Both the position numbers and the translations under genes were made by a program. A DNA stretch of 4,512 nt from the IMG/VR virus record IMGVR_UViG_2695420658_000008. The stretch is one strand, 5' to 3'. How positions within the stretch are numbered: position 1 is the first letter of the stretch; every line of letters starts with the position of its first letter. The notes under the pieces are model-generated. The model worked only from the letters and a program-made list of their open reading frames with translations, ran no database searches and was not told where the DNA came from. Positions 1 through 4,512 of the stretch are shown in pieces. Origin of the DNA: a virus. Its lineage: Duplodnaviria; Heunggongvirae; Uroviricota; Caudoviricetes.

Positions 1-44
1 ATTATCTGAACATAAAACACTATCAATAAGTTGGAGTCATTACC
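1..44 (+). mobile_element. IS1 insertion sequence, terminal 44 bp (IRR end); body of the element lies upstream of the window
   Basis: Seen in sequence: 1-44 ATTATCTGAACATAAAACACTATCAATAAGTTGGAGTCATTACC matches, from memory, the right terminus of IS1 ending in the inverted repeat ...CAACTTATTGATAGTGT / GGTAATGACTCC. Composition switches from AT-rich to GC-rich phage-like coding DNA at 44/45. The reverse complement of 4485-4512 is identical to 17-44. Not verified by alignment. Confidence 0.85.
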
Positions 45-638
45 TGCGCCCCCCTGTGGAATGTAGTAATAACGTTCCATAACGCGGGCACGCCATATTT
101 CCAGATTTTCAATATCTTCACCGTCTGTAATGGTGTCAGCGTACCCTGTGGACGGCAGACCACTGACGGGTGTTCCCAGTTGCATGGCAATACCATCATC
201 CGTATTCCCCGCCGATCCCGGTTCGTCTGCCACAACAGGCACCCGGAGAAGACCATCGGCTGCGGTCACCGTCGCCGTCGTGGTAAAGGTCACCTGATTA
301 TCACGCTGGATCTGCGTTCCCGCTGGCAATACCGGCGTCCCCTCTACGCCATCCCAGCGCACAAATCCCCGGGCTGCCACCGCTTCTTTTCGCGGGCAGC
401 GTTTGATTCTGGCGTGCCGGTACAGCCAGTCTTCATCACACACGTCCGGTAACAGATTTCTGGCAAGATAATCGATATACCCGTACAACGTGTGTACGGC
501 TGCAGCCTGTACACGGGCATACACTTCCGCATCCATACGACGAAGCAGCGTATCCTGCTCAAAGCGGGTTAATAAATCGCTCCGGATCATAGAAATAAGT
601 TGCGGGAGGCCGGGGCGATAAAACTGACTGTCAGCCAT
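45..638 (-). pseudogene. Baseplate J-family protein (Mu gp47-like), 5' portion only (198 native codons); 3' end replaced by IS1
   Basis: Own translation of the minus strand from ATG at 636-638: MADSQFYRPGLPQLISMIRSDLLTRFEQDTLLRRMDAEVYARVQAAAVHTLYGYIDYLARNLLPDVCDEDWLYRHARIKRCPRKEAVAARGFVRWDGVEGTPVLPAGTQIQRDNQVTFTTTATVTAADGLLRVPVVADEPGSAGN..., open with no stop down to position 45 and on through the IS1 end to the window edge. The LYGY.DYLAR...A.G.V...G..G..PAGT pattern is typical of phage baseplate J proteins. Start overlaps the upstream gene stop by 8 nt. Missing from the ORF track because no stop codon occurs in the window. Homologues are longer as far as I recall, so truncation is inferred. 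Confidence 0.7.
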
Positions 639-1041
639 TCAGTTCACTCCAGATATCATCAAAAATAATGTTGTGAATATTGCCGTCACGCTGGTAAATG
701 GTAATGGCAAGTGCCAGCGAGTCTGTCCCGGTCCGGACAGCGTTAATATCAAGACGGGAAGCAACACCATCCTCCACCATCCACGCCAGCGCCTCACGGA
801 CATAATCTCTGGCAAGCTGCGGGGTTTTATTTGTCAGCTTGCTGCGTCGCAACAGATACAAACGCGACCCCGTGCGATCATTCTGAACCGCAGGCCAGGT
901 ATCCCCCCACCATCCAAATATCCGTGGTGCATCATCACGCCCGGCACGCCGCCATGTAAAAAGCGAAATAATCACAGCACGCGTCAGAAGGTCGATCGAA
1001 GCCCCGGTCGACACGGGTCGCCCGTTAACATTAATCATCAT
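631..1041 (-). CDS. Small baseplate protein, Mu gp46-like (gp25/gpW-type wedge component), 136 aa
   Basis: Complete ORF MMINVNGRPV...IFDDIWSELNG with TGA stop at 631-633. Size and position (between the gpV-like spike gene and the baseplate-J-like gene) fit the Mu gp46 slot; the assignment rests on synteny and size rather than on a motif I can name. Tandem ATG ATG start at 1036-1041. Confidence 0.6.
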   Translation of the reverse strand: MMINVNGRPVSTGASIDLLTRAVIISLFTWRRAGRDDAPRIFGWWGDTWPAVQNDRTGSRLYLLRRSKLTNKTPQLARDYVREALAWMVEDGVASRLDINAVRTGTDSLALAITIYQRDGNIHNIIFDDIWSELNG

Positions 1042-1046
1042 GATTT

Positions 1047-1580
1047 TCAGCCCATCGGTTGATCCGGCGTGTCAGTGATCCCGCCACCATCACCATTTTC
1101 GGTATGTTTGTGGGCATTGTAGGCCTGCCGCATTTGCTGCATGCTGAGTCCGCCACTGTCGCAATTGTCAGTAATATCGGCGGTGGATTCGACTGGCATT
1201 TCAAAGCGCGCTTTAGGCGCGTTTTTAAAAATTATGGCCTTCCCGGCCCCGTCCACCACAATACCGGAACGGGTCAGGACAACGGACTGTCCCAGATCGT
1301 CATAAAGCGCCACTTCCCCACGTTTCAGTCCTTTCAGCCGGTAACGTCTGTCAGCCACGACCACAACCACACCATGAGAACGATCGCCCGCCGGAAATAA
1401 AGCAACGCCCTCAGCACCGTTCTGTGCGGCAGATGTAAAACCATAAGGTTCAAGGTGCTCAACGTGTTGTTTCTGATCTCCGGCTATCATTTTCAACCCT
1501 ACAGACTGACACTTTCTGGCGGAATCCACCGCCGTGATGACAGCCCGGGAAATCAGATTACGAAGAGAAAACCCGTTCAT
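1047..1580 (-). CDS. Baseplate central spike protein, gpV family (Mu gp45/Q-like), 177 aa
   Basis: Complete ORF MNGFSLRNLISRAVITAVDSARKCQSVGL...GVALFPAGDRSHGVVVVVADRRYRLKGLKRGEVALYDDLGQSVVLTRSGIVVDG. The RAVITAVD and FPAGDRSHGVVV segments resemble the conserved N-terminal OB-fold of phage baseplate assembly protein V. A strong Shine-Dalgarno GAGGAGG sits 7 nt upstream of the ATG. The start overlaps the 3' end of the hub gene by 23 nt. Confidence 0.75.
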   Translation of the reverse strand: MNGFSLRNLISRAVITAVDSARKCQSVGLKMIAGDQKQHVEHLEPYGFTSAAQNGAEGVALFPAGDRSHGVVVVVADRRYRLKGLKRGEVALYDDLGQSVVLTRSGIVVDGAGKAIIFKNAPKARFEMPVESTADITDNCDSGGLSMQQMRQAYNAHKHTENGDGGGITDTPDQPMG

Positions 1581-2640
1581 CAGAAATCCTCCTCAACATT
1601 TTTTTCTTCCTGGCGGTAACAGGCTCGGGGAGATAAGCATCTGCCGGGCCAACCCGTAATTCAGTCGTCGTGCCCCGGTCGTCCTGGTTATAGGTAACTT
1701 CTGCGATCACCAGTTCATCATTATCAAAATTATTCAGCGGGTCGAAAACGATGACAGATAACCCCGGACGCCATAACGCGCCACTGCCCTGCCGCCAGCC
1801 CTGAACCGTATATGTTGTCTCACGGGTAAGCGCAGCCCGTTGGCGCGCTTCAAATTCACAACGGGCCTTACAGGTTGCTGTCGTTGCTGTGCCTGACTGC
1901 TGAATCAACAAAGGGCGATAACGGGTCACGCCACTGTCCTGAATGGTCTGACGTATTGCGGCAATGGTGGCCTCACCAAAATCATCGTCGTTGCCCGGGC
2001 GCTGCCCACTGACCTGATATTCAGAAAACCGCTCTCTGATGCTTCTTTCCGTGTCACAGGAAAGAATATTCTCTCCCAGCACCAGCACCAGCGCCGTCGC
2101 CGCTTTACCTGTTCCGGGTTTTCCCAGAACCAGTCGCCCGCATTCATCGTCATAAGCCAGCGTCTGAACCTGCCCCAGTAACCGGTTAAGACAATCGGCA
2201 ACGGTTTCGCCGTGTTCCGGCTGGGCATCAATCACCGCTGTCTGCGGCACGCCAGCATCAACAACGGTGATGCCAAATGGCGCAGCCAGTTCACTGACTA
2301 TTCTGAGCAGGTTTTTTCCGCTCTGCTGGAGTGGCAAAGCAGAGCAGTCAACCAGATCGGCTGTTTTGCTTCGCCCGACAATTCCCATGCTGACGCTGCT
2401 GGCGTCATAACGAAGCGGTAGTGCCTCCACATATCCGGTGAGCACAGGCTCATCCCCGATAAGCACTTCAACCAGCTCACCATTTTTTATCCGGGGTTGA
2501 TAATCCCGGCTTCCGGGCCAGCGGGTGGTAATGGCAACATTAAAATCCCGGGCAATACGGTTAATGCCCGCACTGATACGGACGGATGTCCAGCCGCCCC
2601 ATTCGCGACCGGAAACCCGAAGTAAAACGGTATCATTCAT
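1558..2640 (-). CDS. Baseplate hub protein, phage late control gene D family (Mu gp44/P-like), 360 aa
   Basis: Complete ORF MNDTVLLRVSGREWGGWTSVRISAGINRIARDFNVAITTRWPGSRDYQPRIKNGELVEVLIGDEPVLTGYVEALPLRYDASSVSMGIVGRSKTADLVDCSA..., with the hallmark gpD / Mu P architecture (GY.E......D...V...GR..T.DLVDCS). ATG at 2638-2640 overlaps the TGA of the upstream gene (ATGA), implying translational coupling. TAA stop at 1558-1560. Confidence 0.85.
   Translation of the reverse strand: MNDTVLLRVSGREWGGWTSVRISAGINRIARDFNVAITTRWPGSRDYQPRIKNGELVEVLIGDEPVLTGYVEALPLRYDASSVSMGIVGRSKTADLVDCSALPLQQSGKNLLRIVSELAAPFGITVVDAGVPQTAVIDAQPEHGETVADCLNRLLGQVQTLAYDDECGRLVLGKPGTGKAATALVLVLGENILSCDTERSIRERFSEYQVSGQRPGNDDDFGEATIAAIRQTIQDSGVTRYRPLLIQQSGTATTATCKARCEFEARQRAALTRETTYTVQGWRQGSGALWRPGLSVIVFDPLNNFDNDELVIAEVTYNQDDRGTTTELRVGPADAYLPEPVTARKKKMLRRISDERVFSS
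1588..1594 (-). promoter_or_regulatory. Ribosome-binding site (GAGGAGG) for the gpV-like spike gene, embedded in the 3' end of the hub gene
   Basis: Minus strand reads GAGGAGG ATTTCTG ATG; plus-strand CCTCCTC at 1588-1594, ATG at 1578-1580. Confidence 0.6.
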
Positions 2641-4056
2641 CTGACGGGTACCCTTAATGCCCTGACCGGAACAAAGCCCGGATGAGAGATGGCATTTCGA
2701 TCCAGGATATCAGTTTCACGGGACGCATCGTCGTACCATGACGCAGCCAGAACAAGCGCAGGCAGAACTTCCGCTGGCGTTCGCTCTGCGGTTTCCTCCG
2801 TCTGAACCAGACGCGCCTGAATATCCCGGTTCAGTTCTGTACGTAATGACGTCAGCTGAAAAAACAGCCTGTCATCCGCCGTACGCCTGAGCTCCTGTTC
2901 AATCGCCGCGTTCAGCGATTTGCGTATGATGGTGAGATTTTCCCGCGTGGGTGGTTGCGCTCTCTCATCCTGTCCTGTGCTGGCTGCCACGCTGTCAAGT
3001 GCCGGATGAGAAACGTGAATAATATCGGACTGACGTTCAGTGGAACCACCAACAGCCACAACCGCCTGCTGATTTTTCACCAGGCTTCCGGGTTGTGGCA
3101 GTGAAGTGACCGCCCTTGTGGCTTCGCTGATTGCCGTCGTCCGGATGACAGCAGCCACAAGGTTTGTCTGCTGTTTTTGCCTGATAACCGATGCGGAATC
3201 TGTGGGCCACACCGCACGCGGTGCCAGTCCTGGGTCCAGCGTAATGCCGGACATTGTCGTTATGGACTGCACCAGATCCTGTGTGTTATCCACCAGCCGG
3301 GTTCCGGCCCGCCAGGTATCCTGCAACGTATGCACAAAATCACTGGCAACCGACGGCGGCATCAGAATGACGGATAAATCGCCCTGCAGTAGTCTCGCTC
3401 CGGCAGAAACAGCCGAATTAACCATTTTGAAAGCTGTCTGAACGGTTCCCAGCATATCGGTCGTCCGGGCAATAACATCGTTCTGAATAAAGTCCGGTAT
3501 TCCCGCGAGATCAAAATCGCCGAACATGTCTTCAATCAACTCATCCAGGAATACGGACGACTCCTCCAGTTTTCTGGCGGTTGCAGCTCCGGCGACCGGA
3601 AATGACAGTTCCCCGCTCTCAACAAACTGAAATGAAACCCGGCACATACGGCCTTCAGTGCCGGAGTGAGAAACGGTCACCTGCCCGTCAATACAGCCCT
3701 GCATTTCACCGAACTGCGGNNNNNNNNNNNNNNNNNNNNNNNNNNNNNNNNNNNNNNNNNNNNNNNNNNNNNNNNNNNNNNNNNNNNNNNNNNNNNNNNN
3801 NNNNNNNNNNNNNNNNNNNNNNNNNNNNNNNNNNNNNNNNNNNNNNNNNNNNNNNNNNNNNNNNNNNNNNNNNNNNNNNNNNNNNNNNNNNNNNNNNNNN
3901 NNNNNNNNNNNNNNNNNNNNNNNNNNNNNNNNCCTCGTCGCTCTCCACCGAAAACGGAACGCCACGAAATGAAGCGTCGTAAAGATTATCGCGCCAATTG
4001 ATACCTGAAGATGCAGAAAAGAGTGAAGAAAGAGAAGGTAAAGAAGGTAAGTCCAT
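2637..4056 (-). CDS. DNA circulation protein (Mu gp43/N-like), interrupted by a scaffold gap; true length unknown
   Basis: N-terminal segment 4056..3933 encodes MDLPSLPSLSSLFSASSGINWRDNLYDASFRGVPFSVESDE, containing the W.D.L..ASFRGVPF signature of DNA circulation N-terminal domains, with GGAG 5 nt upstream of the ATG. Segment 3719..2637 encodes PQFGEMQGCIDGQVTVSHSGTEGRMCRVSFQFVESGEL...RALRVPVR and is continuously open. The two segments sit in different frames relative to the 213-N placeholder, as expected if the gap length is arbitrary. The ORF-track start at 4067 (METVWTYLL...) is an artefact of reading across the gap. Confidence 0.75.
3720..3932. other. Assembly or scaffold gap (213 N) inside the DNA circulation gene
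   Basis: Uninterrupted run of n from 3720 to 3932, flanked on both sides by coding sequence of the same gene. Confidence 0.95.
4025..4051. repeat. About three tandem 9-bp units (GAAGGTAAA-like) encoding the Ser/Leu/Pro-rich N-terminal extension (LPSLPSLSS) of the DNA circulation protein
   Basis: Plus strand gaagaaaga / gaaggtaaa / gaaggtaag at 4025-4051; the last two units differ by one base. Unit length is a multiple of 3, so copy-number change would stay in frame. Confidence 0.5.
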
Positions 4057-4061
4057 ACTGT

Positions 4062-4065
4062 CTCC
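4062..4065 (-). promoter_or_regulatory. Ribosome-binding site (GGAG) for the DNA circulation gene
   Basis: Minus strand reads TGGAGACAGT ATG; GGAG is 5 nt upstream of the ATG at 4054-4056. Confidence 0.5.
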
Positions 4066-4070
4066 ACTAT

Positions 4071-4094
4071 AAAAAAACCGCCAATTTCTGGCGG
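4071..4094 (-). terminator. Rho-independent terminator for the upstream AT-rich ORF (minus strand)
   Basis: Perfect 6-bp stem CCGCCA / TGGCGG (4078-4083 and 4089-4094) with a 5-nt loop, followed on the minus strand by TTTTTTT (complement of 4071-4077). It lies between the stop of the AT-rich ORF (4103-4105) and the start of the DNA circulation gene (4056). The plus-strand side has only a weak T tract. Confidence 0.7.
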
Positions 4095-4102
4095 CTTATA
4101 TA

Positions 4103-4484
4103 TTAATCATCATTAATATCTTTCATATTCAATTTGCAATTTTCGTAGGTCACTCCCGACTCGCCATTAACATTAACTCCAGCTCTGATATTCCCGTTTT
4201 CTTTTACATCTACAAAAAACTGGCCTCTTGGCATCTTGAACGCAAATGTAAAACCAACAGTATCTGAATCAAAATCATCATCTTTATATATTGGGATCAA
4301 AAATGTCATCGTCGCTGGTGATGCATTGTTTGCAAAATCAAATACACCTATACTTTTGCCGAATTCATAAGAAGCTTTTCTCAATATAATCGCACCGCTG
4401 GCAGAAGGGGATGGGCACGATATCCTCAGTTGTCTGAATCCATCTGTATCCAAGTCAACGTCATTATCTGCAGATGTTTTAACG
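4103..4484 (-). CDS. Hypothetical protein, AT-rich ORF fragment of unknown function (127 native codons); 5' end interrupted by IS1
   Basis: Open frame ...VKTSADNDVDLDTDGFRQLRISCPSPSASGAIILRKASYEFGKSIGVFDFANNASPATMTFLIPIYKDDDFDSDTVGFTFAFKMPRGQFFVDVKENGNIRAGVNVNGESGVTYENCKLNMKDINDD with TAA stop at 4103-4105. It has no native start codon near its 5' end and reads straight into the IS1 terminus at 4485; the TTG start at 4498 in the ORF track lies inside IS1. Composition is markedly more AT-rich than the tail genes. I recognise no family. Confidence 0.4.
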
Positions 4485-4512
4485 GGTAATGACTCCAACT
4501 TATTGATAGTGT
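4485..4512 (-). mobile_element. IS1 insertion sequence, terminal 28 bp (IRR end), inverted relative to the copy at 1-44; body of the element lies beyond the window end
   Basis: 4485-4512 GGTAATGACTCCAACTTATTGATAGTGT is the exact reverse complement of 17-44 and matches the IS1 terminal inverted repeat as recalled. Identity stops exactly at 4484/4485 and 44/45, where the unique flanks diverge. Confidence 0.75.

Follow-up and report, generated by a model that had tools for sequence, protein, structure and literature searches.

An IS1-interrupted open reading frame, probably the 3′ part of an optional, moron-like cargo gene in a phiP27/SfV-like prophage

Near one end of a 4,512-nucleotide stretch of tailed-phage DNA (the window), the minus strand of which carries Mu-type tail and baseplate genes, an AT-rich open reading frame runs into the end of an IS1 element. 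The locus raises three questions: which gene was cut here, whether it belonged beside the tail genes before the insertion, and what its intact product might do. The account that we find probable, though well short of assured, is that the frame is the 3′ part, severed by IS1, of an optional, moron-like cargo gene of a phiP27/SfV-like prophage, the product of which would by analogy act on the cell envelope. The prophage is of the type that combines an HK97-type head with a Mu-type contractile tail. The window has the following features, with an identical IS1 terminal repeat, inverted, at its two ends (1–44 and 4485–4512).

1..44, no strand assigned: end of another IS1, in the opposite orientation, which lies in the baseplate J/gp47 gene (target duplication GGGGCGCAG in IMG/VR contig L011)
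From 638, minus strand: J/gp47, start only
1041-631, minus strand: gp46
1580-1047, minus strand: gp45
2640-1558, minus strand: P/gp44
2637..4056, minus strand: Mu N-like DNA-circularization (tail) protein gene, the downstream neighbour of the cargo gene (96% identity to phiP27 L48)
4068..4097, minus strand: predicted rho-independent terminator of the cargo gene (folding energy and comparison with shuffled sequences)
4103..4484, minus strand: 3′ fragment of the cargo gene, codons 36–160 plus stop (100% identity to L001 8047–8428)
4476..4484, no strand assigned: one 9-bp copy of the IS1 target-site duplication (CGTTAAAAC on the gene strand; same 9 bp in L011)
4485..4512, no strand assigned: IS1 terminal inverted repeat, insB-distal end, GGTAATGACTCCAACTTATTGATAGTGT (hundreds of IS1 matches)

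The frame extends without a stop from the IS1 junction (4484) to the TAA at 4103–4105, and its translation reads VKTSADN...NMKDINDD. A first-pass annotation had called it an AT-rich orphan that could not be assigned to any family, with an acidic KDINDD end, a strong intrinsic terminator of its own, and a 5′ end lost to IS1 without a native start codon. Apart from the word orphan, this description stands. The GC content of 4103–4484 is 37.4% (GC3 31%) against 54.5% (GC3 52–56%) for the tail genes at 45–3719, KDINDD is present before the TAA stop, and searches of Pfam, NCBIfam, and PADLOC with both the fragment and the intact protein gave no match. Just downstream of the ORF lies a terminator (4097–4075) with a 9–10-bp stem that includes 5 G-C pairs, followed by a 7-U run (AAGCCGCCAG-AAA-TTGGCGGTTT then the T-run); the computed folding energy of −14 kcal/mol lies below that of shuffled sequences (z = −3.5). 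The IS1 repeat fills 4485–4512, and the 35 codons of the 5′ part lie beyond IS1 in contig L011. The 131-aa version of the ORF listed for the window (4103–4498) begins at a TTG (4496–4498) inside the IS1 repeat; since this codon and the first residues, (M)ESLP, belong to IS1, the frame has no native start. The IS1 TTG is not preceded by a Shine-Dalgarno sequence, and a product begun there would be cytoplasmic, with no signal peptide. Promoter-proximal DNA, start codon, ribosome-binding site, signal peptide, and the first 16 residues of the mature protein are all missing from the fragment; with its start and signal peptide cut off by IS1, the window copy is a non-functional pseudogene, and it most likely comes from Shigella sonnei. 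An Rfam search of the window gave no match, and a 213-base run of N at 3720–3932 hides part of the DNA-circularization gene, the real bases of which are found at about 5552–5736 of L011.

The orphan label did not survive comparison with other genomes. A megablast search of 4057–4512 against 5,426 complete Escherichia coli genomes found 11 that match 4057–4484 at 97–100%, with matches that end exactly at the IS1 junction. The annotation had proposed looking for an uninterrupted allele, and one was found in its native neighborhood. It spans 483 nt, encodes a hypothetical protein of 160 aa (WP_000594909.1), and is flanked by the tape-measure and DNA-circularization genes in a complete prophage that has a head of the HK97 type and a tail of the Mu type. 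The window matches it with 100% identity from codon 36 to past the terminator. A second allele, 50% identical, fills this slot in phage vB_EcoM-720R4 and in 101 other genomes among the 5,426; about 2% of the complete E. coli genomes carry the intact family. The intact protein matches PHROG 5586, a family with no assigned function, over the whole profile (E = 9.7e-89, residues 1–160 on positions 1–161 of 161), and the window copy, which corresponds to residues 36–160, differs by truncation. The family is narrow and enterobacterial. Records of Shigella flexneri, Yersinia, Salmonella, and Pantoea contain relatives; an exhaustive profile search, which covered 1.84 billion representatives, returned only about 15 genuine ones; and a scan of 185,579 species-representative genomes yielded two loci only, each carrying the intact Shigella/E. 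coli allele. No publication turned up under the RefSeq accession WP_000594909.1. In E. coli FDAARGOS_944, which carries a 100%-identical intact allele, the tail-sheath gene of that same prophage (L001 11322–14122) is split by the IS4-like element ISEc60.

The slot beside the tape-measure gene

The gene is an optional piece of cargo and comes close to a classical moron, since the nearest relatives, phiP27 and SfV, are without it. The N, P, and tape-measure products of phiP27 share 96%, 99%, and 98% identity with their E. coli prophage counterparts, and its tape-measure stop lies within 15 nt of the N start, with no cargo gene between them. SfV, ST64B, F1055, and YeP1 likewise pass directly from the tape-measure gene to N, and vB_EcoM-720R4 has N and P products 96% and 99% identical to those of SfV although SfV lacks the gene. 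The insert measures about 590 bp and contains the ORF, preceded by a leader of 67 nt in which GGAG serves as the predicted ribosome-binding site and followed by the terminator. Across homologues, GC content is 34–42% compared with 48–57% in the neighboring genes, a drop of 8–21 points, and terminators with a GC stem and T-run follow all nine diverged homologues for which the downstream DNA was read, with stem sequences that are unrelated. Added DNA between genes that are adjacent in relatives, deviating GC content, and a terminator of its own are three features that the gene shares with HK97 gene 15 and with morons as they have been described (PMC3594210).

A promoter of its own, which such an element would also have, was not recognized, though one that departs from the consensus may be present; this is the main weakness of the account. 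A scan for consensus promoters found none upstream of the gene, the best sigma-70-like matches upstream of eight homologues were no better than shuffled sequence, and at locus L049 the gap between the tape-measure stop and the homologue is only about 16 nt long. Judged from these sequences, the gene may be transcribed late, together with the tail genes, and not from the repressed prophage, and the classical picture of a moron serving lysogenic conversion is weakened because no promoter rises above chance and the gap is so short. The same two observations speak for a different account, in which the product is a tail-associated or tail-assembly protein of Mu-type tails, encoded by a late-expressed member of the tail operon that is AT-rich by chance. 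Position agrees with it, as seven of the ten homologues examined sit directly after the tape-measure gene, including members at 30–44% identity, and the divergence of the ORF partly tracks that of the N protein (74 versus 68, and 50 versus 52). We nevertheless judge a tail role improbable: all members have Sec signal peptides (described below), which cytoplasmically assembled tail proteins do not, the functional relatives phiP27, SfV, ST64B, F1055, and YeP1 do entirely without the gene, a terminator follows it in every case, and divergence is uncoupled between L001 and L049, where the ORF is 38% identical compared with 68% for N. In addition, the most distant homologues (25–28%) lie outside tail modules, in phage-plasmid-like contigs (L033 740–1270, L034 2919–3413, and L035 1–452) with neighbors such as IncFII RepA, ParA, a CI-like repressor, and HigB/HigA-like or MazE/PemK toxin-antitoxin pairs, and with no tail clusters.

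Two loci have other genes at this position. Gene 16 of Pantoea phage AH07 (L044 961–1455) is in the slot between tape-measure gene and N and encodes an unrelated 164-aa signal-peptide protein of PHROG 8976, which speaks for the cargo reading and suggests that the slot is a hot spot for exported cargo proteins. In a metagenomic contig (L052 2387–3423), a gene with a HIRAN domain, a DNA-binding domain unexpected in a tail operon, separates the tape-measure gene from a cargo homologue of 30% identity.

Predicted export and fold of the protein family

In every full-length member, inspection of the alignments showed a basic n-region, then a hydrophobic core, and a cleavage motif at one shared position (A-x-A, or F-A or S-A, cut before K), which in the intact allele is MIKPFLMTVAILTSCCAQA before K. 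From this pattern we infer that the product is Sec-exported, with a predicted mature form of about 141 aa. The E. coli/Shigella and Yersinia proteins also have lipobox-like LTSC and LISC sequences, respectively, which fit the pattern [LVI][ASTVI][GAS]C, at a place where other subfamilies have no cysteine; the type of cleavage in the E. coli/Shigella/Yersinia clade is accordingly ambiguous, and the protein might be lipidated there. Two further cysteines are conserved, Cys57 in nearly all members and Cys150 in every one.

An AlphaFold2 model built on a 12-sequence alignment (pLDDT 84.9, pTM 0.77) has a helix at residues 24–41 followed by eight strands, so the mature protein is predicted to consist of an N-terminal helix and a generic eight-stranded beta-barrel. 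The depth of the alignment mattered, with a pLDDT of 40 from five sequences and about 85 after distant members from the exhaustive profile search were added. Cys57 ends the first strand of the model and Cys150 lies in the last, and because of these positions a disulfide between them that closes the barrel is plausible. Foldseek searches of the PDB and BFVD returned only E-values of 0.02 or greater. Calx-beta domains of Na/Ca exchangers, considered as a candidate (E = 0.1), were not significant and are at odds with the barrel model. Three large repeat proteins (P0017, P0018, and P0020) scored E-values of 1e-8 to 1e-13 and were rejected as spurious; with a broader profile they fell to about 0 bits, the original scores having been inflated by the summing of many weak matches in repetitive T9SS-type or VCBS-like proteins.

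The predicted architecture, a signal peptide followed by a small eight-stranded antiparallel beta-barrel, would be shared with the periplasmic lysozyme inhibitors MliC/PliC and with other calycin-like barrels. The protein could, like those inhibitors, act on a peptidoglycan hydrolase in the periplasm and shield the lysogen against lysozyme or against muramidases that are secreted or carried on tails. We consider this as improbable as a tail role; none of the 12 family members has a Pfam match, and an hhalign comparison with E. coli MliC aligned the signal peptide only.

Selection on the sequence was also evident. The family is under purifying selection, with dN/dS of 0.07–0.09 against a 74%-identical Yersinia orthologue and of 0.17–0.42 for more distant pairs. 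That the frame opened by chance in AT-rich DNA, as the annotation had allowed for the case that homologues and conservation were lacking, has only its AT-richness in its favor and is next to impossible to reconcile with the low dN/dS, the full-length PHROG match, some 15 divergent members with conserved motifs, and a confident structure model.

IS1 insertions in the prophage

For the way in which the gene was cut, we relied on IMG/VR contig L011, which is 99.97–100% identical to the whole window; the window itself contains only the right-hand IS1 junction, and the far side was read from this contig. There, the tape-measure gene is followed by the intergenic region, codons 1–35 of the cargo gene, a complete 768-bp IS1 (4233–5000), and the fragment seen in the window. 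The insertion point is after codon 35, and CGTTAAAAC flanks both ends of the element (4224–4232 and 5001–5009) as a 9-bp duplication, a length within the 8–10 bp of a simple IS1 insertion. The interruption is a simple IS1 insertion rather than a rearrangement, because the element is complete, the duplication is present, and the 5′ part of the gene is kept on the far side. The second IS1 (L011 9395–10190), inverted relative to the first, lies in J/gp47 with its own target duplication, GGGGCGCAG, and is likewise a simple insertion. The annotation had considered that the frame might be a fragment of a chromosomal or island gene placed beside the tail genes by IS1-mediated rearrangement; two inverted IS1 copies do bound the segment and could in principle recombine, but the gene is in its native position, with the same gene order in intact prophages that have no IS1, and both copies have matching target duplications around split genes that otherwise continue uninterrupted, so that we give this origin almost no credence.

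The window is a 4.4-kb prophage segment between inward-facing IS1 ends, which could be inverted by recombination between them and at which short-read assemblies break because of these ends. The junction of the ORF with IS1 (GCAGATGTTTTAACGGGTAATGACTCC) occurs in only one IMG/VR contig, and that of gp47 with IS1 in three. Both halves of the cut gene are recorded as partial Shigella sonnei proteins, namely the chimeric product "ESLPVKTSADN..." (130 aa, WP_252861237.1) and a 37-aa 5′ fragment, "MIKPF...SNVKT", and both sit on contigs of 4.4–4.9 kb, the size of IS1-bounded assembly fragments.

In S. flexneri SFBU1023 (L004 6480–7330), the cargo gene and its terminator are intact, and an IS1 variant (91% identical to IS1) has inserted just downstream, 31 nt into the N gene. 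The picture is one of a decaying prophage with independent IS1 insertions in different Shigella lineages, one of which retains the whole cargo gene. A further record, CP178302.1 (L005), is titled "Escherichia coli strain ECMA0423", yet its BLAST coordinates and identities equal those of SFBU1023 in comparisons against L001 and against IS1, including the position of the IS1 in N; it may be a Shigella genome under an E. coli label.

Possible functions of the intact protein and their meaning

The intact protein, if exported as predicted, would by comparison with known phage systems work in the periplasm or on the envelope or outer membrane of the phage-carrying cell. There it could bind an incoming tail component or block a step at the envelope, so that superinfecting phages would be excluded. 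By this analogy, the exclusion of related phages is the likeliest of the candidate functions of the intact protein, although we hold it at well below even odds; a conversion factor that benefits the host comes next among the possibilities and, like an inhibitor of a periplasmic enzyme, is less likely than exclusion. Searches of PADLOC, Pfam, NCBIfam, and Foldseek gave no sequence match or significant fold match to known exclusion, defense, or conversion proteins.

Llp of phage T5 is a small exported phage protein that acts in superinfection exclusion. Cor of phi80 and N15 is likewise an exported superinfection-exclusion protein (PMC11436027), and the exported lipoprotein Ltp of TP-J34 is directed against the tape-measure protein (as cited in PMC3952083). 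All three are small phage proteins exported across the inner membrane, as is predicted for the cargo product, and they act on the incoming phage or its receptor. No homology between them and the cargo protein was detected, and their genes, which specify lipoproteins or membrane proteins, lie in lysogeny or early regions or next to those for tail fibers, whereas lipidation of the cargo product is uncertain.

The closest parallel in gene position is HK97 gp15, the product of a moron beside the tape-measure gene, which excludes superinfecting phages by blocking DNA entry (PMC3594210). Both genes are in the tail operon next to the tape-measure gene, and both products are directed to the envelope, by prediction in the case of the cargo gene. 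The cargo gene differs in having no recognizable promoter of its own and in coming after the tape-measure gene, where gene 15 lies upstream; the cargo product is predicted to be a Sec-exported soluble beta-barrel of about 141 aa, with no sequence similarity to gp15, a small inner-membrane protein.

A more specific version, which we regard as speculative and rather unlikely, is that the proteins of PHROG 5586 are periplasmic barrels whose genes travel with Mu-type tail modules, directly behind the tape-measure gene, and that they block genome delivery by tails of the same type through binding, in the periplasm, of the ejected tape-measure protein, N, or the tail tip. They would then be soluble periplasmic counterparts of HK97 gp15 and TP-J34 Ltp, and the terminator that always follows the cargo gene might also govern how much sheath, tube, and tape-measure transcript is made relative to baseplate transcript.

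Overall, PHROG 5586 is a catalogued but uncharacterized family, and the event in the window is the ordinary loss of a prophage cargo gene to IS1. The window copy is a routine pseudogene in a decaying, IS1-riddled Shigella prophage, and the interest lies in the intact family, a conserved and selected group of predicted exported beta-barrels in a fixed slot by the tape-measure gene that has no entry in Pfam, NCBIfam, or the defense database. Should its members prove to be exclusion or envelope-modifying factors, the morons of tail operons would gain a fold new to them and a way of acting in the periplasm, and this might explain why S. flexneri retains the gene beside a tail gene that is already destroyed.
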